Shown here in pieces: positions 12,018-26,456 of a stretch of 64,000 bases of DNA; position 1 is the stretch's first letter, and each line of letters starts with the position of its first letter. The position numbers were made by a program, and so were the translations under genes. This stretch comes from Sphaerochaetaceae bacterium (GTDB lineage: Bacteria; Bacillota; Clostridia; Oscillospirales; CAG-272). The notes under the pieces were generated by a model. It was not told where the DNA came from. It did no database searches and saw only the letters and a list, made by a program, of their open reading frames with translations. The stretch lies in assembly GCA_963656825.1 (NCBI GenBank), contig CAVKJG010000001.1, positions 2,059 to 66,058 of the forward strand. The letters are read 5' to 3'.

Positions 12018-13145
12018 ATGGCTGATTATTATATCGATTCACTCACCGGTCTTGACGAAAACGACGGCAAAAGTCCGTCCTCTCCGCTTCCGTCGCACAC
12101 GGGCATTTCACTTTTGCCGGGCGACACCGTATATTTCCGCCGCGGAAGCGAATATCGCTGCGGAATTTTTTCTCCGAGCGGGGAAAGGGACAAGCCGATA
12201 ACCTTCAAGACCTACGGAGAAGGTCCCGCGCCGAAATTTTTCGGCTCGAAAAACTGCTCCGGCGGATGGCTCTGGGAAGAAACCGGAAAAAACATCTACC
12301 GCCTGAGAATGCCGCTTGCAAGCGAGCCGGGAAATATCGTTTTCGGATTCGGAAAAAGCTTCGGCACGCTCGTGTGGAGCAAAAGCGACCTTGACGAAAA
12401 CGGAAAATGGTGGTTTTCGGCATACGGCTGTCAGAAAAGCGTTCCGCAGGGCGCGGAGCTTTATCTGTATTCGGAGGGAAATCCGTCCGATGTGTTCGGC
12501 GATATAGAAATCGCGCTTTTCGGAAACCGCTGTCTTGCCTCGGGAAAAAGCTTTGTCCGCTTTGAAGGACTGCATTTTCTCTGCTCGGGACTTCACGGCT
12601 ACGCGCAGACAAAGCCGTCGGATATCGGAATTTCCGACTGCCGCTTTGACTTCATCGGCGGCTGCGTATGGAACGAAAAACGGAAAATACGCTACGGAAA
12701 CGCCGTTGAATTCTGGAACGGCGCGGAAAACTGCACAATCGAAAACTGTGAATTTCTCGAAATCTACGATTCGTGCTTTACGACTCAGGGCGGAGCGGAC
12801 TGCGGCGATTTTGAAAACATCGTTTTCAGAAGCAACACAATGTATAACTACGGCTTTGCGGCGTATGAAATACGCGACAGGATCGGCAAAAACGTTTCGT
12901 TTGAGTTCAACGTCTGCGACGGAGCGGGGCTCGGCTTTTCGTCACAGCACGAGGGCGGAACAAGAACCTCCGAAATATATCCCGAGCCTGTCGGAAGTCA
13001 CATCTTCGCGTGGCGGATAGAAAAGCCGACCGACAGCGGAAAAATACGCATAATGAGCAACGTCTTCCGCGGCACGCCGAAGGGCGATGTGTTCACGAAA
13101 AGAATAGCTCCGTCCGCGCTCGCGCAGATACAGACGGACTTTTAA
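12018..13145 (+). CDS. right-handed parallel beta-helix repeat protein, unknown function
   Basis: ATG 12018 follows an AAAAAGGAG RBS. The upstream GTG at 11976 falls inside the promoter. The N-terminus (DGKSPSSPL...PGDTVYFRRGSEY) is typical of beta-helix (pectate-lyase-fold) proteins. No signal peptide. Confidence 0.6.
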   Translation: MADYYIDSLTGLDENDGKSPSSPLPSHTGISLLPGDTVYFRRGSEYRCGIFSPSGERDKPITFKTYGEGPAPKFFGSKNCSGGWLWEETGKNIYRLRMPLASEPGNIVFGFGKSFGTLVWSKSDLDENGKWWFSAYGCQKSVPQGAELYLYSEGNPSDVFGDIEIALFGNRCLASGKSFVRFEGLHFLCSGLHGYAQTKPSDIGISDCRFDFIGGCVWNEKRKIRYGNAVEFWNGAENCTIENCEFLEIYDSCFTTQGGADCGDFENIVFRSNTMYNYGFAAYEIRDRIGKNVSFEFNVCDGAGLGFSSQHEGGTRTSEIYPEPVGSHIFAWRIEKPTDSGKIRIMSNVFRGTPKGDVFTKRIAPSALAQIQTDF

Positions 13146-13161
13146 TACACAAGTATAAAAT
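13144..13161. repeat. TTATAC-N4-GTATAA dyad, copy a (AATACacaaGTATAAAAT)
   Basis: It overlaps the stop codon of the beta-helix gene and runs into the terminator stem. One core mismatch. Confidence 0.7.
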
Positions 13162-13205
13162 CGGAAATTCCGTATTGCCGCTGTGAATTTCCGATTTTTT
13201 GTTTT
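13158..13205 (+). terminator. rho-independent terminator after the beta-helix gene
   Basis: A 13-bp stem AAATCGGAAATTC / GAATTTCCGATTT followed by a T-run. Confidence 0.8.
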
Positions 13206-13240
13206 GATTTTATTTTTTTCGCGGAAAGTATTGAAAAGTG

Positions 13241-13269
13241 TTGAAAAGCGCTGTTTTGCGTGATATACT
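13241..13269 (+). promoter_or_regulatory. sigma-A promoter of pfp (TTGAAA-N17-TGaTATACT)
   Basis: -35 at 13241-13246 (a tandem TTGAAAAG repeat also starts at 13231) and -10 at 13264-13269. Confidence 0.6.
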
Positions 13270-13309
13270 TATCCTGTAAATTTTGTTTTGACGAAAGGAT
13301 AAAACTGTT

Positions 13310-14539
13310 ATGAACAAACTCTACGGCAATGCTGTAATAGGTCAGTCCGGCGGTCCGACCGCGGCTATAAATGCTACGCTTTCGGGCGTTGTGCGCGGCT
13401 GTAAAAACGCAGACTGCATAGGAAAAATATACGGCGCGATAAACGGCGTCGAAGGCGTTCTTGCCGAGCGCTTCTGCGATCTCGGAGAAAGGCTTCCGGA
13501 CGAAAAATCGCTTGAGCTTCTCGAGCAGACTCCCGCCGCCGCTCTCGGCTCGTGCAGAAAAAAGCTTCCCAAGCCCGAGGACGATCCCGCAACGTTTGAA
13601 AAGCTCGTTGAGATTTTCAGAAAATACGATATCCGCTATTTCTTTTACATCGGCGGAAACGACTCGATGGATACCGTCGCAAAGCTTTCGCGCTACTGCG
13701 CTTCTGTCGGCTTCGATATGCGCGTTATGGGCGTACCGAAAACAATAGACAACGACCTTGCCGGCACAGACCATACGCCCGGCTTCGGCTCCGCCGCAAA
13801 ATATATCGCAACCGTAACGCAGGAAGTCCTGCTCGATACGGCGGTCTACACGGTGAAAGCCGTCACGATAATAGAAATAATGGGGCGCGACGCGGGATGG
13901 CTCACCGCCGCAGCGGCGCTTCCCTCGCTTTCGGGCATCGCTCCCGACCTTGTGTATCTGCCCGAAGTCCCCTTTGACTACGAAAAGTTCTATGAGGATA
14001 TTGCCGCGGCGTTTGAAAAGCACCCGAACGTTGTCGTTGCGGTTTCGGAGGGTGCGCGCACCGCGGACGGAACATACGTCGGCGAAGGCGCTCAGAGCGG
14101 TGCGGTCGATGTTTTCGGTCACAAATATCTTTCCGGCACGGGAAAAGCGCTTGAGCTTACCGTAAAGGAAAAATTCGGCTGTAAGGTGCGCTCGATCGAG
14201 CTAAACCTGCCGCAGAGATGCGCGGCTCACATCCGCTCGAAAACCGACATCGATGAATCCGTTATGATCGGCAAAGCCGCCGCGGATTATGCGGTAAACG
14301 GCGAAACCGGCAAAATGGCGTGCTTTGCAAGAATGTCATCCGAACCTTACAAATGCGAAGCCGGACTTTGCGATATCGCCTCCGTTGCGAACGCCGTCAG
14401 AAGCGTGCCGAGAGAATTTATCAATGCGCGCGGAAACGGCGTCACCGAGGAATGTGTAAAATACATCGCTCCGCTTATAATGGGCGAGGCTGAATGCACC
14501 TACAAAAACGGACTTCCCGATTTTATAACCCTCAAATAA
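13310..14539 (+). CDS. pfp: 6-phosphofructokinase, probably PPi-dependent (diphosphate--fructose-6-phosphate 1-phosphotransferase)
   Basis: GQSGGPTAAINA, GGNDS and MGRDAGW motifs. PKTIDND carries Lys where ATP-PFKs have Gly. Confidence 0.85.
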   Translation: MNKLYGNAVIGQSGGPTAAINATLSGVVRGCKNADCIGKIYGAINGVEGVLAERFCDLGERLPDEKSLELLEQTPAAALGSCRKKLPKPEDDPATFEKLVEIFRKYDIRYFFYIGGNDSMDTVAKLSRYCASVGFDMRVMGVPKTIDNDLAGTDHTPGFGSAAKYIATVTQEVLLDTAVYTVKAVTIIEIMGRDAGWLTAAAALPSLSGIAPDLVYLPEVPFDYEKFYEDIAAAFEKHPNVVVAVSEGARTADGTYVGEGAQSGAVDVFGHKYLSGTGKALELTVKEKFGCKVRSIELNLPQRCAAHIRSKTDIDESVMIGKAAADYAVNGETGKMACFARMSSEPYKCEAGLCDIASVANAVRSVPREFINARGNGVTEECVKYIAPLIMGEAECTYKNGLPDFITLK

Positions 14540-14550
14540 TCGGCGCACAT

Positions 14551-15684
14551 ATGTACACATACGAAAAAAAGACCGAATATTCCTATAATTTCGGCACGGT
14601 AAAGGAGCTTTCCTACGTCTGTCGCAGAAACGGGATAAACATCCCGATGCGCGAGGATGTATCTCCTCTTTCGGAAAAGCCGAAGATGCGTCTGAAAGAC
14701 GGAAGCCTTATCTCTCTTGCAAATCCGATTGCCGTAAATCCCATGGAATGTCTTGATTTCTGCGGCGACGGCTCGCCGTCCTTCCTTTCGGAAAGGCGGT
14801 GGCTTCGCTTTGCCTCGTCGGGCGCGGGACTTATATATTGCGGCACCGCCGCGCTTGACAAGGACTGCCGCCGATGTGACCGTCAGCTTGTTGTCACGCA
14901 TGATAATATACACAAGTATAAAATGCTGATAAGCAAGATGCGGGCTGTATCTTCCGCTCCTTTGATAATTCAGCTTTCGGCGGGAAAAGCAAATCACAAA
15001 GCCGTTGCGAAAAGGTTTTCCGCCGCCGCAAAGCTCGCCTTTGAGGCAGGCTTTGACGGCGTTGACATAAAGCTTTGTCACGGCGATGTTCTCTGCCCGT
15101 CCGATATCGGCGGGGTTTTCGGTTCGGTGGTCGATATAGCTCCGCGCGGCGCTGTAATCTCCTGCCGATACGGTCTTTCGGGAAACGCCGAAAATGACGC
15201 AAAAACCGTTTTGTCACTCTGCGAAAAAGGACTTTCCGCCGTGAATATAACCGCCGGCTCTCCCGACGGAAAAAGTCATCTTTGCTTTCCGTCAAACGTT
15301 TCCGAAGAAAAGCCGCCGGAGCATCCGCTGAAAAGCCTTGAAAGGCTTATCTGCGGAGCGGCTGAAATAAAAAAAGCCGCGCCGCAGCTGTGCGTCATAG
15401 CCTCAGGGCTGAGCTATCTCAAAAACCTTGCGCCGTATGTCGCGGCGGAAATTATCGCCTCGGGAAAAAGCGATATGGTCGGCTTCGGCCGCGCGGCTCT
15501 TGCCGATCCCTTTTTTGCGGAAAATTTCATTTCGGGAAAAGCCGAGCCGAAATGCTCGTGCATCGCATGCGGAAAATGCGCAAAGCTTTACCTTTCGGGC
15601 GAGGTCGTCGGCTGCCCGATAAGAGATCAGGAATTTTATCTTCCGGTTCTGAGAAAAATTTTAGGGCAAAATCCGCAGGATTGA
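14551..15684 (+). CDS. OYE/enoate-reductase-like TIM-barrel oxidoreductase with C-terminal Cys cluster motif (atypical active site)
   Basis: Family-like layout (LANPIAVNPME...DGSPS...GAGLIYCGTAAL...IIQLSAG) and CIACGKC...GC at the C-terminus. ATG 14551 lies after the pfp stop codon and has no strong RBS. Confidence 0.55.
   Translation: MYTYEKKTEYSYNFGTVKELSYVCRRNGINIPMREDVSPLSEKPKMRLKDGSLISLANPIAVNPMECLDFCGDGSPSFLSERRWLRFASSGAGLIYCGTAALDKDCRRCDRQLVVTHDNIHKYKMLISKMRAVSSAPLIIQLSAGKANHKAVAKRFSAAAKLAFEAGFDGVDIKLCHGDVLCPSDIGGVFGSVVDIAPRGAVISCRYGLSGNAENDAKTVLSLCEKGLSAVNITAGSPDGKSHLCFPSNVSEEKPPEHPLKSLERLICGAAEIKKAAPQLCVIASGLSYLKNLAPYVAAEIIASGKSDMVGFGRAALADPFFAENFISGKAEPKCSCIACGKCAKLYLSGEVVGCPIRDQEFYLPVLRKILGQNPQD
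14907..14924. repeat. TTATAC-N4-GTATAA dyad, copy c (TATACacaaGTATAAAAT)
   Basis: Perfect core, inside the OYE-like CDS (codons HDNIHKYKML). 17 nt are identical to copy a. Confidence 0.7.
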
Positions 15685-15715: not shown

Positions 15716-15733
15716 TATACACAAGTATAGAAT
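15716..15733. repeat. TTATAC-N4-GTATAA dyad, copy b (TATACacaaGTATAGAAT)
   Basis: Perfect core, 30 nt after the OYE-like stop codon and directly before the bidirectional terminator. Confidence 0.7.
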
Positions 15734-15736
15734 ATT

Positions 15737-15773
15737 AAAAAACCGGCACGGCAGAAGCCGTGCCGGTTTTTTG
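15737..15773. terminator. bidirectional terminator between the OYE-like gene (+) and the serpin gene (-)
   Basis: AAAAAACCGGCACGGC-agaa-GCCGTGCCGGTTTTTT. Confidence 0.85.
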
Positions 15774-15782: not shown

Positions 15783-17081
15783 TTATTTTATCTCCGTAAC
15801 CACTCCCATAAAGAGCGGAAGCTTTGTATTTGTATCGATTATAAAATATACAAACGGTCTGTCGAGCCTTACGTCAACGATTTTTTTCGACTCTGCCGCC
15901 ACGCAATTTTCCCATATCACCGCCGTGACGGCTGCCGCTCTTGTGCCTGACTGCGTTACCTCAATGTGCGTTTTGTGAAGCACATCTCCTATATAAAGAT
16001 TGTTTTCGCAATCGCCTATGCCCGAAAAGTCGGCTTCGACGGGAGAGAAAGCTTTTTTCAGTCCCATTGACACGAGCGCATCGTAAAGACTGAGTTCATA
16101 GTCGTATTCAAACTTGGGGAGATATGCCCTTGCTTTGCGGGTATAATCGTTTTTCTTTCCGGAAAGTATCTGCCCGAGCTCATCGCCCGAAAGCGAAGCG
16201 ACATAATCGAAAACGTCGCCGTCCGGAAGCATTGCAACGAAAGCATAGCTTCCTTCATAATCTTTGCGGAAGCCGACGGCGCCTTTGGCGCTTATATATG
16301 TTTCCGTGCTTACCATAAACGTTGCGTTGCTCTTGCTGTTATCGTACGATTGGAATGTTCCGTTTGCACATTGATTGTCAGTATACTGATTGCTCCACAG
16401 AGCGTCGAAAACAAGCGCGTTTATAAGTATCATTACCGTATCCGAATCGATAGCGTCGATGATCTCATCTATCATATCGTCCGTATGCTCGCTCACCCAC
16501 TTGTTTATCTTATCGACGGTTTTCTGATTGAAGAAATCTTCTTCATATGCCTGAGCGTCGTAGTAGCTTTTGTTCAACTGCAAAAAGTCATCGTGAACGG
16601 CTACTCTGCCGTCCTTTCCGAACCATATAGAATTTGCCAGCTCAACCTTCGCCTTGTCTCCGCTGTAAAGCGAATGTGCAAGCGTGTAAAGATATGCGTT
16701 TGCTTCGTCTACTGAGAAGCCGAAAAGCTTTTCAAATTCTTCTCTTGTTTCTCCCATTGCTCCGTTCGATGTCATACCGAGAGCAACTATAACGGAAAGC
16801 GGCGAGATAAGCGAGCTTTTCTTGTCCTCGTCAAGCGTGCTTTGCATAAGCTTTACGGCAAAATCAAGCATGCCGCTTTTGAATTTTTCATCGGCGTTCT
16901 TTCCCGTAACCTCCGTTGCGACAAAATCCTTGAGCAGATCGCCTGCGGCTTTTGCGTTTGTAGGTTCAACCGTCGGCAGATCGCCCCTTGTTACTTTAGG
17001 TTCAACCTTTGTCTTTGCGCACGAGCAAAGCGAAAGCGCCAGCATTGAAAGCGCAAGTATCATTGCAAAAATTCTTTTCAT
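15783..17081 (-). CDS. serpin-family serine protease inhibitor, lipoprotein
   Basis: Lipobox LALSLCSCA, serpin hinge/RCL (EVTQSGTRAAAVTAV) and the C-terminal DRPFVYFIID motif. Confidence 0.88.
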   Translation of the reverse strand: MKRIFAMILALSMLALSLCSCAKTKVEPKVTRGDLPTVEPTNAKAAGDLLKDFVATEVTGKNADEKFKSGMLDFAVKLMQSTLDEDKKSSLISPLSVIVALGMTSNGAMGETREEFEKLFGFSVDEANAYLYTLAHSLYSGDKAKVELANSIWFGKDGRVAVHDDFLQLNKSYYDAQAYEEDFFNQKTVDKINKWVSEHTDDMIDEIIDAIDSDTVMILINALVFDALWSNQYTDNQCANGTFQSYDNSKSNATFMVSTETYISAKGAVGFRKDYEGSYAFVAMLPDGDVFDYVASLSGDELGQILSGKKNDYTRKARAYLPKFEYDYELSLYDALVSMGLKKAFSPVEADFSGIGDCENNLYIGDVLHKTHIEVTQSGTRAAAVTAVIWENCVAAESKKIVDVRLDRPFVYFIIDTNTKLPLFMGVVTEIK

Positions 17082-17110
17082 TTCGGTTTTCCTCCGTTAT
17101 AATAATATTT

Positions 17111-17788
17111 TTACTGCTCCGATATGCTTATCAGAGCCGCTTTCAGCCTTGCCGAATATTCGTCAAACGATTCCGAATGAGCGGGTGATTCGCCCGTAAG
17201 CTCAAACCGCACGCTGAGGACAGTGCCGTCGTCGCACTCCCACCTGTATATCGGCGCACCGAAAGCGGCTTTTCCGTCGCTTCCCAGCAGATCGCGTATT
17301 TCCCTGTACGACATTCCCTGCCTTACGGTTATCATCTTCCCGCCCACTGTGACGGTTACAAAGCCGCCCGCTGTCGTGGCGCTTGTTTCCGCTTTTGACG
17401 TGCAGGCTTTCGTCGTTTCGATTTGAGTAAACACGGGCGTTGTCGTCGTAATGACAAGCGGAGTTGTCGTGTAAACGGGAGTCGTGGTATAAGCCTCCTC
17501 GTCTGCAGTTGTGGTTTCGGCACATTCAATCGTGGATTTCTTTGTCGCCGAGCCGGATATGTCAACCTTTTCGTAATGACCGCTTCCGTTATAATTCTGC
17601 CACGGCTCTGCCGCTCCGTTTCCTTTCGGCAACGATCCCGCCACGAGTATTGCCGGAATAACAATTACGGCAAACGCCGCCGCCATCGCCGCGAATTTTA
17701 TTGTTTTCAGCTTTTTTGCTTTTTCTTTCGCGGCTTTCTTTTCGGCTTTTTCATACACCGAGCGGCGAAATTCGTCCATATTCTTCAT
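17111..17788 (-). CDS. single-pass membrane protein, putative anti-sigma factor, Thr-rich extracellular region
   Basis: 4-nt overlap with the upstream ECF sigma gene, one TM helix and a T-rich linker. No ZAS motif. Confidence 0.5.
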   Translation of the reverse strand: MKNMDEFRRSVYEKAEKKAAKEKAKKLKTIKFAAMAAAFAVIVIPAILVAGSLPKGNGAAEPWQNYNGSGHYEKVDISGSATKKSTIECAETTTADEEAYTTTPVYTTTPLVITTTTPVFTQIETTKACTSKAETSATTAGGFVTVTVGGKMITVRQGMSYREIRDLLGSDGKAAFGAPIYRWECDDGTVLSVRFELTGESPAHSESFDEYSARLKAALISISEQ

Positions 17789-18375
17789 ACCGATTCAACC
17801 CCCTTTCCTTCAAGCACTTTTCTTAAGGCTTCTTTTCCTCTGTAAAGCAGATTTGTCATCTGCTTTTTGTTTTTGTTCATTATAATACATATTTCATCGC
17901 CCGAAAATCCGTAAAAATACGTCAGCTTCAGCGCCGTCGCATATTCGGGATTTATCTCCTTCAGCGCGTCGCGCACCGCCTTTGCCTTTTCGTCGGCAAT
18001 AAGCCTGTCTTCAAGAAGCTTTCCGTCCGATATGCTTTCCTCACTTTCGCTTATGTCCTTATCGGAAAAACGTCTGCGACGGCGGATTTTGTCCACCGCT
18101 TTGTTTCTTGCAACGGAAAAAAGATACGTTTTAAGCGAGCATCCGAAAAAATATCTCTTCGGATGAACTATCACGTCCGCGAAAACATCCGCGGCTATAT
18201 CCTCCGCGTCGGCAAAGTTTTTTACAATGCCGTAAGCAAAAAATATAAGCGCGTCGTGATATATTTCAATTATTTTGTCAAATGCCGCGCCGTCGCCGCA
18301 AAGCCATTTTTTGTAAAGCTCCGCTCCGATATCCTTTTCGGATGTTCCGGCGCCGATATTTTTATCCTCCGACAT
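17785..18375 (-). CDS. RNA polymerase sigma factor, sigma-70 ECF-type
   Basis: Region 2 and region 4 patterns (DAEDIAADVF..., LKLTYFYGFSGDEICIIMNKNKKQMTNLLYRGKEALRK). Confidence 0.85.
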   Translation of the reverse strand: MSEDKNIGAGTSEKDIGAELYKKWLCGDGAAFDKIIEIYHDALIFFAYGIVKNFADAEDIAADVFADVIVHPKRYFFGCSLKTYLFSVARNKAVDKIRRRRRFSDKDISESEESISDGKLLEDRLIADEKAKAVRDALKEINPEYATALKLTYFYGFSGDEICIIMNKNKKQMTNLLYRGKEALRKVLEGKGVESV

Positions 18376-18540: not shown

Positions 18541-19557
18541 TTATTTATCGTAGCCGTTGGGATTTTTCGTCTGCCAGCGCCATGTATCCTCGCACATATC
18601 GTCAAGACCTTTTTCGGCTTTCCAGCCGAGAATTTCCTTTGCCTTTGTGGCGTCGGCGTAACATTCGGCAATATCTCCGGGACGCCTGTCGAGCATTACC
18701 TTTTTTATTTCCTTTCCGCACGCTTTTTCAAATGCGGATATCATTTCAAGCACGCTGTAGCCTACGCTCGTACCGAGATTGAAAACTTCAACTCCCTTGT
18801 GAGCGCCGACATAATCCGCCGCGGCAACGTGACCCTTTGCGAGATCGACAACGTGAATATAATCTCTTACTCCCGTGCCGTCCTTTGTGGGATAATCCGT
18901 TCCGTAAACGGTCATCTGAGAAAGCTTACCGACAGCCGTCTGCGCAATACGCGGCATAAGATTGTTCGGAATACCGTTCGGATCCTCGCCTATAAGTCCG
19001 CTTTCGTGCGCGCCGACAGGGTTGAAATAGCGGAGCAAAACCACCGAAAGCTCGGGATTCGCCTTTGCCGCCGACTGCAAAATGACCTCTATCATATATT
19101 TTGTCCAACCGTAAGGGTTCGTGCAGCGACCAACGGGAGCGGTTTCCTTTATCGGCACCTCGTCGGGATCGCCGTAAACCGTCGCCGACGAAGAAAAGAT
19201 GATGTTGTGCGCGTCGTACTTTTTCATCGTTTCAAGCAACGTCAGCGTTGAATCGAGATTGTTTCTGTAATATTTTACAGGCTGCGCAACGGATTCGCCC
19301 ACGGCTTTAAGTCCCGCAAAATGAATCACCGTGTCTATATGCTCTTTTTCAAACACCTTTGAAAGTGCTTCGGCGTCGCACACGTCCACTTCGTAAGCGG
19401 GAAAGCTCTTCCCCGTTATCTGTTTTATTCTGCGTACCGCTTCGGGCTTGCTGTTTGAATAGTTATCCGCAATAACTATGTCATAGCCTGCGGAAAGCAG
19501 CTCCACCGCGGTATGAGAACCTATATATCCGGCACCGCCGGCAAGTAAAATACTCAT
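18541..19557 (-). CDS. galE: UDP-glucose 4-epimerase
   Basis: GGAGYIGSH Rossmann motif, the YxxxK region, and full-length GalE-like sequence. Confidence 0.93.
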   Translation of the reverse strand: MSILLAGGAGYIGSHTAVELLSAGYDIVIADNYSNSKPEAVRRIKQITGKSFPAYEVDVCDAEALSKVFEKEHIDTVIHFAGLKAVGESVAQPVKYYRNNLDSTLTLLETMKKYDAHNIIFSSSATVYGDPDEVPIKETAPVGRCTNPYGWTKYMIEVILQSAAKANPELSVVLLRYFNPVGAHESGLIGEDPNGIPNNLMPRIAQTAVGKLSQMTVYGTDYPTKDGTGVRDYIHVVDLAKGHVAAADYVGAHKGVEVFNLGTSVGYSVLEMISAFEKACGKEIKKVMLDRRPGDIAECYADATKAKEILGWKAEKGLDDMCEDTWRWQTKNPNGYDK

Positions 19558-19625: not shown

Positions 19626-19686
19626 ACTTGCTTTTTTACGTCCGCTCCGAGCGGAAATCCGGCGGATAAAATCAAGGATTTTCACG

Positions 19687-19704
19687 ATTTTATACTTTCG
19701 TATA
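19687..19704. repeat. TTATAC-N4-GTATAA dyad, copy d (ATTTTATACtttcGTATA)
   Basis: Perfect core, about 35 nt downstream of the wecB stop codon and about 60 nt upstream of the galE -35 element. Confidence 0.7.
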
Positions 19705-19738: not shown

Positions 19739-20863
19739 TCAATTGTCGCGCAAAAGCACGTCCGCTATACGTTCCGACGCTTTCCCGTCGCCGTAGGGAT
19801 TTTTTGCGCATGCCATTTTTTCGTACTCGGCTTTATCGCAAAGCAGATTTTTGCACGCGGAATAAATGCTTTCTCCGGACGTTCCGGCAAGCTTAAGCGT
19901 TCCGGCTTTTATTCCCTCGGGACGCTCGGTGACGTCGCGCAGGACAAGCACGGGCTTTGCAAGCGACGGCGCTTCCTCCTGAATTCCTCCGCTGTCGGTA
20001 AGAATAAGATAGCTTTTTGCCATAAGATTGTGAAAACCGCAGACGTCAAGCGGCTCTATAAGCTTTATCCTTTCGCGACCGGAAAGCATCTCGCCTGCGG
20101 CTTTTCTCACCTGCGGATTCGGATGAACGGGATAAACTATTCTCACGTCTTCAAACTCGTCCGCTATTCTGCGCACCGCGCCGAACATTTCGCGCATCGC
20201 TTTGCCTATGCTCTCGCGCCTGTGCGCCGTAAGAAGTATCATTCTGCTGTCTTTCGCCCATTCGGTGACGGGAGAAGAATAGCCTTCTCTTACCGTGTAT
20301 TTCATCGCGTCTATGGCGGTGTTTCCCGTCACGGATATTTTTCTTTCGTCCGCGCCCTCGCGCAGAAGATTTTCGGCGGAAAGCTTTGTCGGCGCAAAAA
20401 GATATTCCGCCGTTATGTCTATCGCGCGGCGGTTGAATTCCTCCGGATACGGAGAGTAAACGTCATATGTGCGGAGTCCCGCCTCGACGTGCCCCACGGG
20501 TATCTTCATATAAAAGCAGGCAAGCGACGCCGCAAAGGCGCTCGTCGTATCGCCGTGAACAAGCACAACGTCGGGCTTTTCCCTTTCAAGCACCGCTTTC
20601 AGCCTTTCGGTAATCGAAAAGGTTATGTCGAAAAGCGTCTGCCCCGATTTCATTATGTCAAGGTCGCAGTCGGCGCTCACACCGAAAATATCCAGCACCG
20701 ATCGGAGCATTTCTCTGTGCTGTCCCGTTACACAAACGTATAAATCAACGTCTTTCCGCTTTTTCAGCTCGATTATCACGGGACACATTTTTATAGCCTC
20801 CGGTCGTGTTCCGAAAACCGCCATTATCTTTTTCAAACCGTGAAAAGCCTCCTTTTCGCTCAT
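19739..20863 (-). CDS. wecB: UDP-N-acetylglucosamine 2-epimerase (non-hydrolysing)
   Basis: FGTRPEAIKMCPV, HGDTTSAFA, LTDSGGIQEEAPSLAKPVLVLRDVTERPE. Confidence 0.93.
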   Translation of the reverse strand: MSEKEAFHGLKKIMAVFGTRPEAIKMCPVIIELKKRKDVDLYVCVTGQHREMLRSVLDIFGVSADCDLDIMKSGQTLFDITFSITERLKAVLEREKPDVVLVHGDTTSAFAASLACFYMKIPVGHVEAGLRTYDVYSPYPEEFNRRAIDITAEYLFAPTKLSAENLLREGADERKISVTGNTAIDAMKYTVREGYSSPVTEWAKDSRMILLTAHRRESIGKAMREMFGAVRRIADEFEDVRIVYPVHPNPQVRKAAGEMLSGRERIKLIEPLDVCGFHNLMAKSYLILTDSGGIQEEAPSLAKPVLVLRDVTERPEGIKAGTLKLAGTSGESIYSACKNLLCDKAEYEKMACAKNPYGDGKASERIADVLLRDN

Positions 20864-21016
20864 TTTTAATCTTACAGCATGAATATTATAGCATATAAAT
20901 GAGCCGTATGTTAAAGTTTTTTCACATATTTTTCAAAACGCTTGAAAAGATACGCCGTTTGCTGTAAAATATATTTGTTTGATTTTCAAAAACCATCCGA
21001 AAGGTAACTGTGTAAA

Positions 21017-21601
21017 ATGAAAAAGGTATTCAGAAATCACCCCGTACTCTCCGCGCTCGGACGAATTCTTTTGATTGCCGTCGTCTGCGCGTGCATAGCG
21101 ACGATAGCTTTGTCCTTTTGCGCATATCTGCGCTACAAGGAAGGGCGTTTTCTCGTTTCAAGCATTTCACTGCTCGTGCTTCTTTGCGTTTTCTGCGCGA
21201 TAGGTCTGCCGCAGATGTGGAAAAAATGCTCGGAAAAGCTTGTTGTCACCGATGATTCGGTAACGTGGAAATGTGCGTTTGCAAAAAAACATTCCGTTCC
21301 GATAAGTGAAATAAAATACTCAAAAACGGCGTTTTATAAAGCGGAGGACGATCCTCGCGCCGACATTTACAAAGCCGGAAAGTACTGCGTAATCGTATCG
21401 ACAGAGCCGATACCGCAGGTAAAAGCACGCAAATACAAATGCAGCGATACCCTGATAGTGTTCCCGACGACGTCGGGACTTTGCAGATGCCTGTCCGAAG
21501 CTCTGGGCGATTCTTCGTGCGGCGGAATATTCAAAGCGATGGCAAACAAGGAAGAGCGCCTTGTCAAAGAAGCCGGAAAATCAGCCAAACACAGAAAATA
21601 A
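21017..21601 (+). CDS. hypothetical membrane protein (2 TM helices plus a cytoplasmic domain)
   Basis: ORF preceded by a TTGAAA-N17-TAAAAT promoter-like element. No family recognised. Confidence 0.5.
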   Translation: MKKVFRNHPVLSALGRILLIAVVCACIATIALSFCAYLRYKEGRFLVSSISLLVLLCVFCAIGLPQMWKKCSEKLVVTDDSVTWKCAFAKKHSVPISEIKYSKTAFYKAEDDPRADIYKAGKYCVIVSTEPIPQVKARKYKCSDTLIVFPTTSGLCRCLSEALGDSSCGGIFKAMANKEERLVKEAGKSAKHRK

Positions 21602-21633
21602 CCGAAATATTTTTCTGAAAGGAAATTTTGTTT

Positions 21634-22455
21634 ATGATAAAATACGACAGATATGCAGGCGGCAAGCGTTATGCCGCAACCTTCAGCTATGACGACGGCG
21701 GCGCGGCGGACAGACGCCTTGTCGGACTTTTCAACAAGTACGGCGCAAAATGCACGTTCAACCTTATTTCCTCATCGCTTGTAAAAGCCGAGGGAACGGG
21801 AATAAAGACTGCCGAGCTTAAAGACCTTTACGACGGTCACGAGATCGCCTGCCATACATATTCGCACCCGCATCTTGAAAGAATGTCCGTTCAGGATCAG
21901 TACGAGGAGCTTATCCGCGACAGGCAGATAATAGAAGACGCCACGGGCAGAATCGTGCGCGGACTTGCGTATCCGTTCGGCACTTACAGTCCGGACACGA
22001 CCTTTGCCGCAATGAAAACCGCTTCCCTTGTCTACGGCAGGACGGCAACCGCCTCAAACTGCTTTGAGCTTCCGTCCGATTTCAGAATATGGAATCCCAC
22101 CACGCACCACAACGAGTGCGAGCCGTATGTGAAAAAATTTCTTTACAACGTTGAAAAGGCGATATGGCGCGCGGGCGGCGTGCTTTACATATGGGGACAC
22201 AGCTACGAGCTTGACAATAAAGACTATCCTGTTCAGTGGCAGCAGCTCGAAGGCGTGCTCGCCTCCCTTGCGGACGACGCGGACGGCATATGGTTTGCCA
22301 CAAACATAGAAATTTACGATTACGTAAACGCCCTCAAAGCGCTCCGCCGCTCAGCCGACGGAAAGACGTTTTACAATCCCACGGATATAGACCTGTGGAT
22401 TTCGGTTGACGATCAGCCGCTTGAAATTCCCAGAATATCGACGGTGACGATATGA
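21634..22455 (+). CDS. polysaccharide deacetylase (NodB homology domain), no signal peptide
   Basis: FSYDDG and HTYSHPHL motifs. ATG 21634 is preferred over the TTG at 21628. Confidence 0.8.
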   Translation: MIKYDRYAGGKRYAATFSYDDGGAADRRLVGLFNKYGAKCTFNLISSSLVKAEGTGIKTAELKDLYDGHEIACHTYSHPHLERMSVQDQYEELIRDRQIIEDATGRIVRGLAYPFGTYSPDTTFAAMKTASLVYGRTATASNCFELPSDFRIWNPTTHHNECEPYVKKFLYNVEKAIWRAGGVLYIWGHSYELDNKDYPVQWQQLEGVLASLADDADGIWFATNIEIYDYVNALKALRRSADGKTFYNPTDIDLWISVDDQPLEIPRISTVTI

Positions 22456-23252
22456 TAAAATACGACAGATACCCGGGCGGAAAGCATTTCGCCGTAACCT
22501 TCAGCTATGACGACGGAAACATCGCCGACAGGCGACTTGTCGCGCTTTTCAACAAATATAATCTCAAAGCGACGTTTCACCTTATACCGTCAAGATTCGG
22601 CGGCGACACGGTAATTTCCTCAGACGAAGTAAAAACGCTTTATTCCGGTCACGAAATATCGGGGCACACTTATTCGCACCCGCATCTTGTCGGAATGCCG
22701 GTCTCCGCTCAGCTTGAAGAAATAACGCGCTGCCGTACCGAGCTTGAAGCCCTTTCGGGAACGCTCGTGCGCGGAATGTCGCTTCCCTACGGCGGAAAAA
22801 ATACCGATACGGTAACGGCGATGAAGGCAGCGGGCATAGCATATTCACGCAACGCAGGCTCCACGGGCGGACTGTCGATTCCGGCGGACTTTCTTGATTG
22901 GAATCCCACCTGTCATCATTCGGCAGCACCGAAAATTATAGAAAGCTTCAAAAACGCGTGGATAAATCAGTCGTGGAGCTACGGCGGACTTATCGATATT
23001 TGGGGACACAGCTTTGAATTCGATCGTGCAGACAACTGGCAGCTTGCCGAAGAAATGTGCGCTTCGCTTTCCGGCCTGCCGGACGTCTGGTATGCGACGA
23101 ATATAGAAATCTGCGATTACATAACCGCCCGACGCGCGCTTATCGTATCACAGGATCAAAAGACAATTTTCAATCCGTCGGCGATTTCCGTATGGGTAAG
23201 CTCGGACGGCTCCGCGCTTGAAATAAAAGGCGGAGAAACCGTCAGGCTGTAA
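22452..23252 (+). CDS. polysaccharide deacetylase paralog (NodB homology domain)
   Basis: FSYDDG and HTYSHPHL motifs. Collinear similarity to the upstream gene, with an ATGA start/stop overlap. Confidence 0.8.
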   Translation: MIKYDRYPGGKHFAVTFSYDDGNIADRRLVALFNKYNLKATFHLIPSRFGGDTVISSDEVKTLYSGHEISGHTYSHPHLVGMPVSAQLEEITRCRTELEALSGTLVRGMSLPYGGKNTDTVTAMKAAGIAYSRNAGSTGGLSIPADFLDWNPTCHHSAAPKIIESFKNAWINQSWSYGGLIDIWGHSFEFDRADNWQLAEEMCASLSGLPDVWYATNIEICDYITARRALIVSQDQKTIFNPSAISVWVSSDGSALEIKGGETVRL

Positions 23253-23286
23253 TTTGAAAAAGCTCGACACCGGCGTGATTTTCGAT

Positions 23287-23304
23287 AATTTATACTTTTG
23301 TATT
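23287..23304. repeat. TTATAC-N4-GTATAA dyad, copy e (AATTTATACttttGTATT)
   Basis: One core mismatch. It lies 35 nt after the deacetylase stop codon and 24 nt before the ylmH ATG. Confidence 0.65.
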
Positions 23305-23327
23305 ATTTTTGTCGGGAGGATATACAT

Positions 23328-24104
23328 ATGACCGAAAAAGACGTGCTTATCTCTCACCTTTCGGACAAGCTCCGCCACTGTCGTGAGCGCGACTGTATTC
23401 AGAGCACGCACTTTCTCGACGCAGCCTCTCTGTCGGAGGCAAAGCGTTTCTGCGCCGCCGAAAAAGCGCGCGCGGTATTTTTCGGAGGCTACGAAAACGC
23501 CGAAAGAGTTATATGCGCCTTTGTACCCGATTTTTATCCGGACGAAATGTTTCCGTCGTATTTTTTCGACGAAAGCGAGGATCAGCCCGTCAAAGCCGTG
23601 AGATGCACGTGGGCGCAAGGCTCGCCGCAGCTTTCTCACCGCGACATTTTAGGCTCGATGCTTGCGCTCGGAATAACGCGCGAAGCCACAGGCGATATTC
23701 TCGTTTCGGAAGCTTTTGCTGACATTTTCGTACTTCCGCAGATGGTCGGGTTTTTGATTTCTCATTACGAAAAAGCCGGAAGAGCCGCACTTTCCGTGCG
23801 CGAAATTCCGCTTTCCGAGGTTGTTTTTCCGGAGGTAAACGTCGAACGTATGCGCGACACGGTCGCTTCCATGCGGCTCGACTGCGTGCTTTCGGCAATA
23901 TATTCTCTTTCACGATCGAAGGCGGAGGAAGCAGTGTCGGCAGGTATTGCCTTTGTAAACGACATAAAAGCATCGAAGCCCGACGCCCCGATAAAAGACG
24001 GCGATAAAATAGTTCTGCGCGGAATGGGCAAGGCAAAAATCATATCGTCGGACGGCGTATCCAAGCGAGGCAGAACCGTAATAATCTTCGACAGATACAG
24101 GTAA
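23328..24104 (+). CDS. ylmH: YlmH-like RNA-binding S4-domain protein
   Basis: GGGAGGA RBS then ATG 23328. A C-terminal S4 domain (MRLDCVLSAIYSLSRSKAEEAVSAGIAFVN) and YlmH-like length. Confidence 0.75.
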   Translation: MTEKDVLISHLSDKLRHCRERDCIQSTHFLDAASLSEAKRFCAAEKARAVFFGGYENAERVICAFVPDFYPDEMFPSYFFDESEDQPVKAVRCTWAQGSPQLSHRDILGSMLALGITREATGDILVSEAFADIFVLPQMVGFLISHYEKAGRAALSVREIPLSEVVFPEVNVERMRDTVASMRLDCVLSAIYSLSRSKAEEAVSAGIAFVNDIKASKPDAPIKDGDKIVLRGMGKAKIISSDGVSKRGRTVIIFDRYR

Positions 24105-24110
24105 TTTCAG

Positions 24111-24128
24111 ATATTATACTTTTGTATA
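24111..24128. repeat. TTATAC-N4-GTATAA dyad, copy f (ATATTATACttttGTATA)
   Basis: Perfect core, 7 nt after the ylmH stop codon and 18 nt before the rlmA ATG, abutting its RBS. Confidence 0.7.
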
Positions 24129-24145
24129 TTTCAAAGGAGCAGCAT

Positions 24146-24973
24146 ATGTCGGAATTCACTTGTCCCGTGTGCGGACAAAGACTTGAAAGACACGATTCGC
24201 AGATGAAGTGCCCTCTCGGGCACAGCTACGACATATCCCGCCGCGGATATGTAAATCTGCTGATGTCGCAGGCGTCGTCGAAAAAACGTCACGGCGACGA
24301 CAGCGAAATGGTGTCGGCGCGGACGCGCTTTCTCTCGCTCGGGCATTATGACAGGCTCCGCAGCGAAGTCTGCGATATCGCGCTCGGGCTTATTTCGCAC
24401 GGCGGCGTGATAGCCGACATCGGCTGCGGCGAATGCTACTACACGGAACATATCGCCCGTGCAATGAAAGAAAAAAACATTCCGTGCGACATATACGGAA
24501 TAGATATATCCAAAAAGGCTCTCGACGCCGCGGGAAAACGCAATTGCGGAATATCGCTTGCTGTCGCAAGCGCGTTTTCGCTCCCGCTGGCAGACGAATC
24601 CGCAGACCTTATTCTCAACCTTTTCGCTCCGCACGAGCCGAAGGAATTTTCAAGAATTTCCGCACCCGACGCAAAGATGATAAGGGTGTTCCCTCTTGCC
24701 CGTCATCTGTGGGAGCTCAAGGAAGCCATCTATGATGCGCCATACGAAAATGTCATTGACACGCTTGACTTTTCCGGTTTTACACTCATGTATAAAAAGG
24801 AGCTTTCGTACCGTATTCAGCTGGCTTCGCAAAGCGAAATTCTTGACCTTTTCACAATGACGCCGTACTGCTACAAAACCTCCGAAAAGGACAGAAAAAA
24901 GCTTGACGCGCTCACCTCGCTCGACACGCGCGTCGAATTCTGCATAGCGGTTTACGAAAAAAGCGAGAGCTGA
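24146..24973 (+). CDS. rlmA: 23S rRNA (guanine745-N1)-methyltransferase RlmA-like
   Basis: Zn-ribbon FTCPVCGQRLE...CPLGHSYDISRRGYVNLL and a SAM motif DIGCGECYY. AAAGGAG RBS precedes ATG 24146. Confidence 0.85.
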   Translation: MSEFTCPVCGQRLERHDSQMKCPLGHSYDISRRGYVNLLMSQASSKKRHGDDSEMVSARTRFLSLGHYDRLRSEVCDIALGLISHGGVIADIGCGECYYTEHIARAMKEKNIPCDIYGIDISKKALDAAGKRNCGISLAVASAFSLPLADESADLILNLFAPHEPKEFSRISAPDAKMIRVFPLARHLWELKEAIYDAPYENVIDTLDFSGFTLMYKKELSYRIQLASQSEILDLFTMTPYCYKTSEKDRKKLDALTSLDTRVEFCIAVYEKSES

Positions 24974-25002
24974 TTGACACACCCGTCTTTCCATGGTATA
25001 AT
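24974..25002 (+). promoter_or_regulatory. sigma-A promoter of the amidase gene (TTGACA-N17-TGgTATAAT)
   Basis: Perfect -35 and -10 elements with an extended TG, directly after the rlmA stop codon. Confidence 0.75.
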
Positions 25003-25033
25003 TTTAATCGAGTTGATATGAGAGGAGGCGCGC

Positions 25034-25852
25034 ATGAAGAAAAATAAAAGCTTCAGAGAAAACGGAAGATCGAGCGGCGGCTCGGTCGGATTTTTCAGGG
25101 TTCTGGGGCTTACTGTTATAATTGTGGCTGCGGCATTTATCATAAATCTGACTTCGCCCTTTGAGGAAGCGCACGAAACCACCGCATCGTCCGGAACGTC
25201 AACGGTTGCAACCACGACCACGCAGACAACGGCGCAGACGAGTGCCGTCACAACGACGACAACGGAAGCCAAACCTTCCACATCAACGTCAACATCGACG
25301 CCGCGGGAAACCGCCGCTCCGACCTCGCGCGTACCGACGGACGAGGAAATGAAAAAGCTGATAGAAGAAAAAGATCTGCCGATAAATCCTCATTCGCGTG
25401 TCGGGCACAAGCGTACAGCCACAACGCAAATAGTCGTTCACTACGTCGCAAATCCGTCCTCCACGGCGGAGCAGAACTGGAGCTGCTTTAACAACTACGC
25501 AACGTCCGGCGAACGCGACGCAAGCTCAAATTTCATCGTAGGTCTTGACGGAGAAATAATTCAGTGCATGCCAATAGACGAGGTTTCGTATCACGCGGGA
25601 AAGGTGAATTATTACTCAATAGGAATCGAAGTGTGCCACCCGACAGCCGACGGAAAATTCAACGAGGCTACATATAATTCGCTTGTGAAGCTTGTTTCTT
25701 GGCTTTGCAAAAAATACGGAATTTCAAAAGAAAACGTTATCCGCCATTACGATGTAAACGGAAAGGATTGTCCGCGCTACTATGCCGGCGAGCCCGGCAG
25801 CGACGGCTATCGCAGGTGGGAAGCCTTTAAGGACGACCTTATATTTGACTGA
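25034..25852 (+). CDS. N-acetylmuramoyl-L-alanine amidase (amidase_2/PGRP domain), membrane-anchored with Thr-rich linker
   Basis: N-terminal TM helix, T-rich linker, and VVHYVANP...SSNFIVGLDGEIIQ...SYHAG...IGIEVCH. Confidence 0.85.
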   Translation: MKKNKSFRENGRSSGGSVGFFRVLGLTVIIVAAAFIINLTSPFEEAHETTASSGTSTVATTTTQTTAQTSAVTTTTTEAKPSTSTSTSTPRETAAPTSRVPTDEEMKKLIEEKDLPINPHSRVGHKRTATTQIVVHYVANPSSTAEQNWSCFNNYATSGERDASSNFIVGLDGEIIQCMPIDEVSYHAGKVNYYSIGIEVCHPTADGKFNEATYNSLVKLVSWLCKKYGISKENVIRHYDVNGKDCPRYYAGEPGSDGYRRWEAFKDDLIFD

Positions 25853-25871
25853 CGCCGTCTTGATTTTTCGC

Positions 25872-25889
25872 ATATTATACTTTCGTATA
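25872..25889. repeat. TTATAC-N4-GTATAA dyad, copy g (ATATTATACtttcGTATA)
   Basis: Perfect core, 20 nt after the amidase stop codon and directly before the bidirectional terminator. Confidence 0.7.
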
Positions 25890-25893
25890 AAAC

Positions 25894-25926
25894 AAAAAGC
25901 TCCGCTTTTCAAAGCGGAGCTTTTTG
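25894..25926. terminator. bidirectional terminator between the amidase gene (+) and dut (-)
   Basis: AAAAAGCTCCGCTTTTCAAAGCGGAGCTTTTT. Confidence 0.85.
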
Positions 25927-25938
25927 TTTTGCGTTTTT

Positions 25939-26385
25939 TTATTTTGTTCCGGTAGAGCCGAAGCCTCCCGCGCCTCTTTTTGTTTCATCGAGAGTATCGC
26001 TTTCCTCAAATTCCGCGCGGATATAAGGAGCTATCACAAGCTGGGCTATCCTTTCTCCCGCGGAGATTGTCTGAGGCTGTCCCGAATGATTGTGAAGCGA
26101 AACGATTATCTCTCCGCGATAGTCCGAGTCTATAACTCCGACCTTGTTTGCCGGAGCAATTCCGCGCTTTGACGCAAGTCCGCTCCTCGCATAAACAAGC
26201 CCCACAAGTCCGTCGGGAATCTGAACGGCAATTCCCGTGCCGACCATCACCGTCTGCTCCGGAGCTATGACAATGTCGCTGTCCGTCGCGGCGTAAAGAT
26301 CAGCGCCCGCGGCAAAATCGCTCGAATACACGGGAACCTTTGCCAGAGGACAGAGCTTTTTAAGCATTACTTTTTCGCACTTCAT
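25939..26385 (-). CDS. dut: dUTP diphosphatase
   Basis: GLVYARSGLA, GVIDSDYRGEI, RGAGGFGSTG. ATG 26385 follows AAAGGAAG; the ORF could extend to the TTG at 26391. Confidence 0.93.
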   Translation of the reverse strand: MKCEKVMLKKLCPLAKVPVYSSDFAAGADLYAATDSDIVIAPEQTVMVGTGIAVQIPDGLVGLVYARSGLASKRGIAPANKVGVIDSDYRGEIIVSLHNHSGQPQTISAGERIAQLVIAPYIRAEFEESDTLDETKRGAGGFGSTGTK

Positions 26386-26438
26386 ATGCAAACTTCCTTT
26401 TCTGTTTTATAATTATCCTTATGCCAAGCGGATTTTTT

Positions 26439-26456
26439 GTTTTATACAATAGTATA
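26439..26456. repeat. TTATAC-N4-GTATAA dyad, copy k (GTTTTATACaataGTATA)
   Basis: Perfect core. It overlaps the last codons and stop codon of the GH78-like gene, about 55 nt upstream of the dut start. Confidence 0.65.

Follow-up and report, generated by a model that had tools for sequence, protein, structure and literature searches.

Some global regulators of mobile elements have dispersed operators, as KorB does in the OB sites of IncP plasmids and C1 in the genome of phage P1. Repetitive extragenic palindromes (REPs) are another class: they measure 20-40 nt, are GC-rich, occur in hundreds of copies per genome, differ from strain to strain and are associated with RAYT transposases. The BenM/CatM boxes of the LysR type read ATAC-N7-GTAT. 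Protein roadblocks, as described for CcpA, CodY and LacI, are an established mode of regulation in Firmicutes (PMC10310618, PMC4132739). Here we describe a palindromic element, TATAC-N4-GTATA, that occurs eight times in a 64,000-nt stretch of a genome assigned to the Clostridia (Oscillospirales, CAG-272; deposited as Sphaerochaetaceae bacterium, GenBank assembly GCA_963656825.1, contig CAVKJG010000001.1, positions 2,059 to 66,058; hereafter the window, numbered from its first letter). We propose that the eight dyads are putative operator-type DNA sites for a clade-specific helix-turn-helix (HTH) dimer encoded by an unlinked gene, a reading that the sequence comparisons lead us to give a probability of about 0.5. 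Dyad operators are a known kind of element; what is unusual is the exclusive placement of these copies away from promoters in a single neighbourhood, and full-text literature searches for the motif strings found nothing relevant.

Copies of the dyad and their conservation

An exact search for TATACNNNNGTATA found six copies in the window, at 14907, 15716, 19691, 24115, 25876 and 26443, and none in 100 dinucleotide-preserving shuffles. With at most one mismatch to TATACNNNNGTATA allowed, 12 matches were found against 0.59 expected, and two of these, at 13144 (AATAC...) and 23291 (...GTATT), complete a set of eight that spans 13144-26456. The preliminary description of this DNA had listed the same eight copies, six perfect and two with one mismatch, as enriched over chance, and both statements hold; its 18-nt coordinates are the 14-mers plus four flanking bases. 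When the window was scanned with a 26-nt weight matrix, the eight sites scored 25-34 bits and the next best match, the half-site at 31815 that the preliminary description had mentioned, scored 17.5 bits. Thus, the clustering at 13.1-26.5 kb is real: all eight dyads lie inside 13.3 kb and no comparable one lies in the other 51 kb. Together, the shuffles and the weight-matrix scan rule out chance or base composition as the source of the dyads.

Relatives were found by protein searches combined with exact look-ups, and their loci were read within +/-10 kb of two marker genes, encoding a UDP-GlcNAc 2-epimerase and a beta-helix protein. By marker-protein identity, they group into L085/L086 (~96%), L082-L084 (~90%, from human guts) and L001/L211/L212 (~79%), and the left part of the region is covered by L210 (89%) and L208/L209 (80%). 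The closest relative among 185,579 representative genomes, which do not include the window species, is UMGS660, whose contig UQUT01000026 (L001) carries an epimerase of 79% identity and is syntenic with the window over 18.5-30.7 kb. Conservation at orthologous intergenic regions, which the preliminary description had put forward as a check, was borne out: the eight sites occupy orthologous positions wherever these are covered, in four to five species, and their placement is the same in strains L082, L083 and L084. Between the window and the 79-80% species, half-sites are ~96% identical and the rest of the same spacers 58%; at the junction between the rhamnosidase-like gene and dut, half-site identity is 10/10. 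The imperfect AATAC halves of sites 1 and 5 (site 5 reads GTATT on the plus strand) are inherited unchanged in all species. The dyad is also held within a coding sequence: at site 2, the third-codon positions of 7/7 conserved codons are identical between the window and L208, against a third-position identity of 47% at conserved residues gene-wide in a protein that is only 50% identical. As judged from these comparisons, selection is holding the dyads in place in sister species, silent codon positions included.

Both the dyads and the synteny are absent from 78 other genomes carrying the epimerase, and beta-helix homologues at <=64% identity have no dyad at the stop codon. The motif does not extend beyond this clade; the same 78 genomes and beta-helix homologues also speak against variant dyads that had co-evolved in remoter relatives, a possibility that we considered and rejected. 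No further dyad was found in ~20 kb of extra flanks scanned at the relatives' loci.

From left to right, site 1 (13144-13157, AATAC-ACAA-GTATA) overlaps the TAA stop codon (13143-13145) of the beta-helix gene (12018-13145, plus strand), and its last base opens the stem of a terminator (13157-13198, -17.8 kcal/mol); it is present in L210 (5349) and L208 (11127) with the imperfect AATAC half kept. Site 2 (14907-14920, TATAC-ACAA-GTATA) lies inside the gene for an OYE-like flavoenzyme (14551-15684, plus strand), in codons N-I-H-K-Y-K, and is conserved in L210 (7113) and L208 (12872). Site 3 (15716-15729, TATAC-ACAA-GTATA) begins 32 nt past the stop codon of that gene, with a bidirectional terminator (15737-15772) 7 nt beyond its end; L208 has kept the site (13687), and in L210 its sequence is degenerate (TATATATTTGTATT).

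Site 4 (19691-19704, TATAC-TTTC-GTATA) lies 35 nt past the stop codon of the epimerase gene (19739-20863, minus strand); a perfect promoter of galE (19624-19596) has its -35 element ~70 nt downstream of the site. It is kept in L085, L082-L084 and L001/L211, where the spacer drifts (GAAA, ACAG, CGAA, GGAG) between constant half-sites. In the ~79% species, a gene for an ECF-transporter S component (PF12822) stands between the epimerase gene and galE (L001 10766-11353; L211 11162-11632; L212 11162-11722). This gene, whose ribosome-binding site (TATACAGGAGTATAaATG) overlaps with site 4, is missing from the window and the 90-96% species.

On the right of the cluster, site 5 (23291-23304, TATAC-TTTT-GTATT) occupies a 75-nt junction, 39 nt past the stop codon of the second of two polysaccharide deacetylase genes (21628-23252, plus strand) and 23 nt before the ATG of ylmH (23328-24104, plus strand); the same imperfect half is found in every relative, with YlmH only 45% identical in L001. 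Site 6 (24115-24128, TATAC-TTTT-GTATA), in a 41-nt junction 11 nt past the ylmH stop codon and 17 nt before the ATG of rlmA (24146-24973, plus strand), is identical in L085, L082 and L001/L211. Site 7 (25876-25889, TATAC-TTTC-GTATA) begins 24 nt past the stop codon (25852) of an Amidase_2 gene (25034-25852, plus strand) and abuts a bidirectional terminator (25888-25931) shared with dut (25939-26391, minus strand); the orthologous copy matches exactly in L085 and departs by a single base in L082 (TACAC) and L001/L211 (TATAT). Site 8 (26443-26456, TATAC-AATA-GTATA), 52 nt upstream of the dut start (26391), overlaps the stop codon (26442-26444) of a gene for a rhamnosidase-like protein (26442-28526, minus strand) and is kept in all relatives; its orientation is ambiguous (25.1 versus 23.3 bits). 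With their AAAACAAAAA flanks, sites 7 and 8 form a 23-nt inverted repeat (25876-25898 / 26434-26456, 91% complementary) on either side of dut.

Further matches in the window are of doubtful or no standing. A one-mismatch dyad at 20729-20742, in codons L-Y-V-C-V/I of the epimerase gene, is exact in L001/L211 and carries one mismatch in the other relatives, with changes that track amino-acid changes; another, at 24781-24794 in rlmA, carries one mismatch in every relative too. The membership of both in the set is doubtful. The preliminary description had seen no copy elsewhere, which stands on the weight-matrix scores; it had listed the dyad at 24781 and overlooked the one at 20729. The one-mismatch matches at 44098 and 54878 have GC-rich spacers and flanks that do not match, and are probably due to chance. 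Two weaker resemblances also lie at gene junctions. The half-site GATATTATACTTTT (31815-31840), between a DHHW gene (30744-31844) and an MBOAT gene (31857-33260), is the same as 24110-24123 but lacks the GTATA partner, and the degenerate dyad-like TATAATTTCGTAAATA (44981-45006, 15.7 bits) separates an SDR gene from an HAD hydrolase gene.

Recognition of the dyad

Twenty-seven aligned instances from the window and its relatives give the consensus AAATTATAC-AAAA-GTATAAAAT. In this alignment several features of the dyad emerged: (i) G-T-A-T-A and both A's of ATAC (A6/A8) are invariant, and at least 90% of instances have an A directly 3' of GTATA; (ii) the 5' half is tolerant, with AATAC, TACAC and TATAT all seen, so that the core dyad is an asymmetric xATAC-N4-GTATAA; (iii) the spacer is 4 nt long in 27/27 instances and A-rich on the strand reading GTATAA, which gives a 5-4-5 arrangement with half-site centres 9 bp apart, about one helical turn, a geometry shared with operators of the Cro/CI and LexA types; and (iv) a one-sided A-tract (GAAAATC-like) follows 7-8 nt beyond GTATA, at a fixed distance from the dyad. 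The last feature is only moderately conserved in relatives. It is exemplified on the plus strand by GTATA-AAAT-N3/4-GAAAWTC at 13158-13175; the A-rich flank is on the right side in sites 1-3 and on the left side in sites 4-8 (19672-19690, 23272-23290, 24097-24114, 25858-25875 and 26428-26442). Dyad and flanks together make a 26-mer such as CGATTTTATACTTTCGTATAATTTGC, and no longer repeat unit common to the copies was found beyond ~26 nt. In the alignment, the "extended" pairs of the 22-bp dyad given in the preliminary description are mostly unpaired.

Is this pattern read as DNA or as RNA? A UAUAC-N4-GUAUA stem-loop in 3' untranslated or intercistronic regions, read by an RNA-binding protein or nuclease, could set 3' ends, processing or stability. 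All copies are transcribed, 7/8 lie 0-39 nt past a stop codon and in two long spacers they hug it. The dyad also stays with the upstream gene when the downstream neighbour differs, as with the ECF-transporter gene inserted at site 4 (L211) or the convergent neighbour of the OYE-like gene (L210). Moreover, both strands of a perfect palindromic stem read alike, and AT-rich palindromes past stop codons do form mRNA 3' ends in giant viruses (PMC4402537).

The folding data argue otherwise. Predicted RNA hairpins of the dyads reach only -1.0 to -4.0 kcal/mol, half of them no better than shuffles, and the terminator is favoured over the dyad hairpin at site 1. Of the cells in the putative stems, 80.4% are paired, no more than the 81.3% of shuffles, and compensatory changes are lacking; 7/24 distinct instances break the outer pair, the 3' base of which never varies. 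Relative to transcription, the orientation of the invariant half and its flank is mixed, pointing 3' at sites 1-4 and 8 and 5' at sites 5 and 6. One conserved copy lies in a coding sequence, where ribosomes would melt the stem. Searches against Rfam families gave no match at gathering score or at E<=1, only sub-threshold matches driven by the terminators. On balance an RNA-level element is unlikely, and the hairpin role suggested in the preliminary description is weak on the same three counts of folding energy, pairing no better than in shuffles and mixed orientation. An intrinsic terminator or structured RNA was also rejected: the real terminators are separate hairpins beside three of the sites, and the dyads show neither covariation nor an Rfam match.

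What the alignment does conserve is the sequence of the half-sites rather than their pairing, around a free spacer and with no compensatory change. Because the half-sites are fixed, the spacer is free, covariation is lacking and one half is strong and the other weaker, the pattern suggests recognition of duplex DNA by a dimer and not selection for base pairing. We therefore favour an operator for an unlinked regulator, one of the roles that the preliminary description had listed: an HTH dimer encoded elsewhere in the genome would dock on double-stranded DNA and contact one strong half-site, GTATAA with its A-rich flank, and one tolerant half-site. The conserved half-sites, the lack of a local DNA-binding gene and the occurrence of the dyad in the Cro/CI switch of a prophage all point this way.

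The prophage came from pattern scans of IMG/VR, in which the matches listed were mostly singletons. Paired-dyad scans were heterogeneous and returned 10-bp GTATAC iterons, TATACACGTGTATA clusters and giant-virus contigs; among the matches listed, the only clean bacterial analogue was prophage L089 (IMGVR_UViG_2562617182_000002), which is Enterococcus/Lactobacillus-like by blast. In L089, TTTATACGAAGGTATAAA and TTTATACTTTCGTATAAA lie 172 nt apart in the divergent spacer of a 66-aa HTH_3 gene and a 113-aa Cro/C1 HTH gene, which are followed by genes for an ImmA-like peptidase, a second HTH protein and an integrase. Each dyad covers the spacer and -10 element of a promoter, and the arrangement is the textbook layout of a lysogeny switch. 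A blast comparison of the L089 switch with annotated phages gave only weak matches to Enterococcus/Lactobacillus phage HTH proteins and no characterised repressor. We use the viral data solely as an existence proof that Cro/CI-class HTH proteins presumably use this dyad.

Three other viral contigs deserve mention. Phage contigs L303 (422-6886) and L383 (2935-7110) carry five and seven extended palindromes, TGTTATAC-N4-GTATAACA and AGTTATAC-N4-GTATAACT, respectively, scattered in gene junctions over 4-6.5 kb and in some cases directly past stop codons. In the giant-virus-like contig L418 (31% G+C, with C2H2 zinc-finger open reading frames), TTATACAAAAGTATAAAT occurs five times in two groups at 5161-6118 and is identical to sites 5 and 6 of the window, spacer and flank included.

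Placement, surroundings and possible modes of action

The window has a G+C content of 49% and represents an unremarkable part of the chromosome of a spore-forming Clostridia lineage. Left of the cluster lie rluB, dacB, scpB/scpA, an M50 peptidase gene, engB, lon, tig and lexA (11184-11807, minus strand), and the right side holds envelope and housekeeping genes. Besides the genes named above, the cluster contains a PPi-phosphofructokinase gene (pfk, 13310-14539, plus strand), a serpin gene (15783-17081, minus strand), genes for an anti-sigma-like protein (17111-17788) and an ECF sigma factor (17785-18375, minus strand), galE (18541-19557, minus strand) and a membrane-protein gene (21017-21601, plus strand). 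No DNA-binding gene was found in or adjoining the cluster, nor any HTH regulator in the 64 kb or the relatives' flanks beyond LexA and two ECF sigma factors. A local binding protein was considered and rejected: the open reading frames without assignment encode the membrane protein, the anti-sigma-like protein, the beta-helix protein and a 71-aa Cys-rich peptide (30483-30698), none of them a DNA binder. The last (CSGCSGCDGIGCG) has no family match, lies between a beta-lactamase-like gene and a DHHW gene and is called in all relatives.

Several features of these genes are of separate interest. The secreted serpin is in an apparent operon with the ECF sigma factor and the anti-sigma-like protein (15783-18375), an arrangement common to all relatives, and the tandem deacetylase genes are paralogous, with a 108-nt stretch 81% identical (21633-21740 / 22451-22558). 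GalE (window 18541-19557, L001 11416-12429) is 97% identical between the two species (84% in DNA), whereas its neighbours are 45-90% identical in protein and ~74% in DNA, which suggests that galE was recently transferred or gene-converted between the window species and the ~79% species.

Placement was judged against the open reading frames and Pfam matches of the window. All copies lie in transcribed gene junctions, in 3' ends or, for site 2, in a coding region. Seven of the eight dyads begin 0-39 nt past a stop codon, in line with the figure of about 45 nt given previously. The preliminary description was also right that three dyads precede terminators (the hairpins at 13157-13198, 15737-15772 and 25888-25931), that two end shortly before start codons (23 nt for ylmH and 17 nt for rlmA) and that one (14907, in the OYE-like gene) is inside a coding sequence; it had noted a single overlap with a stop codon where there are two, at 13144 and, on the minus strand, at 26443. 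On average, the dyad stands at a relative position of 0.31 in its spacer, and clear hugging of the upstream stop codon is seen only in two long spacers (164 and 181 nt). Most spacers are short (41-98 nt), so a position just after a stop codon is partly forced and the "after stop codon" placement is only mildly non-random.

The relation to promoters is more striking. Strong sigma-A promoters of the cluster (-35/-10 pairs at 13241-13269, 18487-18459, 19624-19596, 20914-20885, 20942-20970 and 24974-25002, and a TTGACA/TACAAT pair upstream of the beta-helix gene) belong to pfk, the ECF sigma gene, galE, the epimerase gene, the membrane-protein/deacetylase operon, the amidase gene and the beta-helix gene, respectively, and no dyad was found to overlap any of them. 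The earlier remark that the copies lack a sensible -35 partner holds for canonical sigma-A promoters. That the dyads are promoters of the ECF sigma factor at the cluster centre was rejected as well: upstream of its own gene, the conserved sequence is sigma-A-like (TTTTCA-N17-(TG)-TACAAT) without a dyad, and the SigW-type TGAAAC-N16-CGTA does not fit the dyad flanks.

Might the dyads instead contain weak, repressible promoters of their own? In such phage-switch-type cassettes, the half-site and flank would provide a -10 element, TATAWW, and a poor -35-like ATTTCA/TTTTCG would lie 15-17 nt upstream. Transcription would run outward from the cluster centre in every case, from two sites into ylmH and rlmA and from the other six as antisense RNA into the 3' ends of neighbouring genes. 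Consistent with this, 5/8 sites are promoter-like at 9-10 of 12 positions in a consensus scan, with TTTTCA-16-TATAAT at site 4, whose TATAAT is kept in all five species despite a diverged flank. The flank element stands at a fixed distance from the dyad, and in prophage L089 the dyad overlaps the spacer and -10 element of both switch promoters. However, a TATAC/GTATA dyad with A/T flanks yields TATAWW on both strands automatically, and the -35-like flank is weak, poorly conserved in relatives and unaided by a TG extension. Furthermore, the start predicted at site 6 would fall inside or past the ribosome-binding site of rlmA, a transcript from site 7 would enter a terminator directly, and L001/L211 read TATTAC and TATATA at sites 5 and 6, where the critical last T is lost. 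Such cassettes seem to us quite unlikely.

What, then, would a protein bound at these operators do? It would not be a classical promoter-occluding repressor, we infer. Since the sites avoid promoters and sit in stretches that are read through, the most economical mode would be a roadblock or boundary, or bridging. As a roadblock or boundary, the bound dimer may uncouple dut from the rhamnosidase-like gene, ylmH and rlmA from the deacetylase genes, galE from the epimerase gene and the distal OYE-like gene from pfk; alternatively, the sites may be bridged into one nucleoprotein domain. An extension of the idea, in which a single clade-specific binder at gene ends would provide condition-dependent protein "punctuation" of operons as a programmable roadblock or insulator over 13-25 kb, and so a separate layer of regulation, is speculative and has little probability in our view.

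Clustering of copies in a limited chromosomal zone is characteristic of parS/ParB-type systems, and eight sites in 13.3 kb display it. The region may be a chromosome-organising cluster, on which a spreading or bridging protein would mark 13-25 kb for segregation, condensin loading, sporulation anchoring or insulation. The confinement of the eight sites, the functional heterogeneity of the genes and the proximity of scpA and scpB (~8 kb away) would suit such a role, as would the persistence of one region in all relatives even with an Opp operon in ~10 kb of extra DNA in the ~90% species. This apparent ~10-kb insertion, inferred from two separate, non-overlapping contigs of different samples, lies between the serpin gene and the OYE-like gene (L082 15202-21152, L210 8008-10173), contains an Opp-type ABC operon together with genes for proteins of 284 aa (unassigned) and 417 aa, and is without intergenic dyads; if so, the cluster appears stretched yet still one region in that species. 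The window has an Opp-like operon of its own at 56248-63987. The flanks of the dyads are opposed (3 left, 5 right), always toward the cluster centre, which also suits this role; with a chance of ~6% and two orientations ambiguous, we build no argument on the pattern.

The motif, however, is unlike parS: the 16-bp parS palindrome TGTTNCACGTGAAACA has no match in the window at <=3 mismatches and its sequence is unrelated to the dyad, nor does the window contain a dif-like site. The GC skew of minus-strand gene blocks is ~-0.10 and that of plus-strand blocks ~0 on both sides of the cluster, so the replication component is the same on either side, which places the cluster away from both origin and terminus. 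In addition, known centromere-like sites show no bias to gene junctions. We consider a chromosome-organising role very unlikely. An origin, terminus or fork trap (Ter/RTP) was rejected on the lack of a skew switch, of dif and of parS, the opposed flanks notwithstanding.

Could the dyads simply be mobile? REP-like or recombinogenic repeats, whether miniature palindromes, recombinase targets or cassette boundaries, would also be extragenic palindromes at gene 3' ends, some beside terminators; gene content does differ beside site 4 (the ECF-transporter gene) and site 3 (the Opp operon), and dut is bracketed by its 23-nt, 91% complementary inverted repeat. Set against this are positions fixed across species and across strains L082, L083 and L084, the AT-rich composition and 14-nt length of a motif that is confined to a single region of the DNA scanned and has no unit beyond ~26 nt, a copy maintained inside a coding sequence, and a search of the vicinity that found no transposase or recombinase gene. 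Mobility of this kind is extremely improbable. The REP-like role in the preliminary description lacks support for these reasons, the copies being orthologously fixed in one region only, 14-22 nt long, AT-rich and without a longer unit; its recombination-site role is unsupported, with gene order stable and the dyad too short for known recombinase cores.

The proposal of an operator for an unlinked HTH dimer has weaknesses of its own. Its binder was found neither in the 64 kb nor in the relatives' flanks. Three sites directly precede efficient-looking intrinsic terminators, where a roadblock seems redundant, and the genes concerned (PPi-phosphofructokinase, OYE-like flavoenzyme, epimerases, deacetylases, ylmH, rlmA, amidase, dut and glycosidase) share no obvious pathway. 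A palindromic stem looks alike from both strands, so that orientation is not by itself enough to discard recognition as RNA. Finally, the analogy with a prophage has a single clean instance behind it, which a search for the dyad pattern itself brought up.

If a dedicated protein does bind the dyads, they would define a regulon or a structural domain in an abundant, uncultured lineage of human and animal gut Clostridia. The promoter-avoiding placement, if true, would make the region a natural test case for roadblock or insulation versus promoter occlusion. If the dyad is an ordinary repressor site with an odd geometry, it adds one more regulon motif for a poorly known group. In addition, a short, sharply defined and conserved motif is a ready bait for the capture of binding proteins and a clade marker.

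Comparison with known systems

Several described palindromes resemble the dyads in part. One is the LexA box, with lexA at the left edge of the cluster. Like the Gram-positive LexA (Cheo) box GAAC-N4-GTTC, the dyad has the form xxAC-N4-GTxx with an A/T-rich spacer, but the half-sites differ at 2/4 positions and the flanked genes are not SOS genes. Upstream of lexA we found a classical Firmicute SOS box instead, AAAC-TTTT-GTTC at 11870-11881 (GAAC-AAAA-GTTT on the lexA strand), and no TATAC dyad. With this box of its own at lexA, and ATAC/GTAT half-sites in the dyads, the LexA box is excluded. The preliminary description had set aside a list of known operators, from which the exclusion of LexA alone is confirmed here.

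LysR-type boxes share the ATAC and GTAT half-sites; the spacer of the window dyads, in contrast, is 4 nt in 27/27 instances, which leaves the T-N11-A frame unmet, and no LysR-type gene lies nearby. With REPs and bacterial interspersed mosaic elements (BIMEs), the dyads have in common that they are extragenic palindromes at gene 3' ends and between convergent genes. They differ in their 14-nt AT-rich core and fixed positions, and in having no GC-rich, imperfectly palindromic unit of 20-40 nt headed by a conserved tetranucleotide. AT-rich palindromes right past stop codons also recall the "hairpin rule" of the Mimiviridae, a system of eukaryotic viruses that depends on RNase III-like cleavage and polyadenylation (PMC4402537), for which no bacterial counterpart is known.

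In their distribution, the dyads resemble the KorB and P1 C1 sites and the palindromes of phage contigs L303 and L383, where many copies are spread over several kb in junctions, some far from promoters. The KorB and P1 C1 systems belong to plasmids or phages that encode their own regulator, whereas the window region is chromosomal, syntenic across species and made of housekeeping-type genes. In their placement, the dyads resemble the roadblock sites of CcpA and CodY and the LacI O2 site, which lie downstream of promoters, within or between genes, and at which RNA polymerase is halted by the bound dimer (PMC10310618, PMC4132739). Those are single extra sites whose main counterparts stand at promoters; in the window, all copies are non-promoter, and their role as roadblocks is putative.

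In sequence and geometry, the dyads come near the presumed Cro/CI (XRE) operators of prophage L089. The TTTATAC-N4-GTATAAA core and its flanks are identical, the spacer is TTTC as in sites 4 and 7, a GGATTTT tract lies upstream of one copy, and, as in Cro/CI operators, the dyad is 14-18 bp long and its half-site centres are spaced by one helical turn. The L089 dyads overlap divergent -35/-10 spacers beside HTH genes whose products presumably bind them. The window dyads, in contrast, have neither promoter nor HTH gene beside them, and their eight copies extend over 13 kb of ordinary chromosomal genes.

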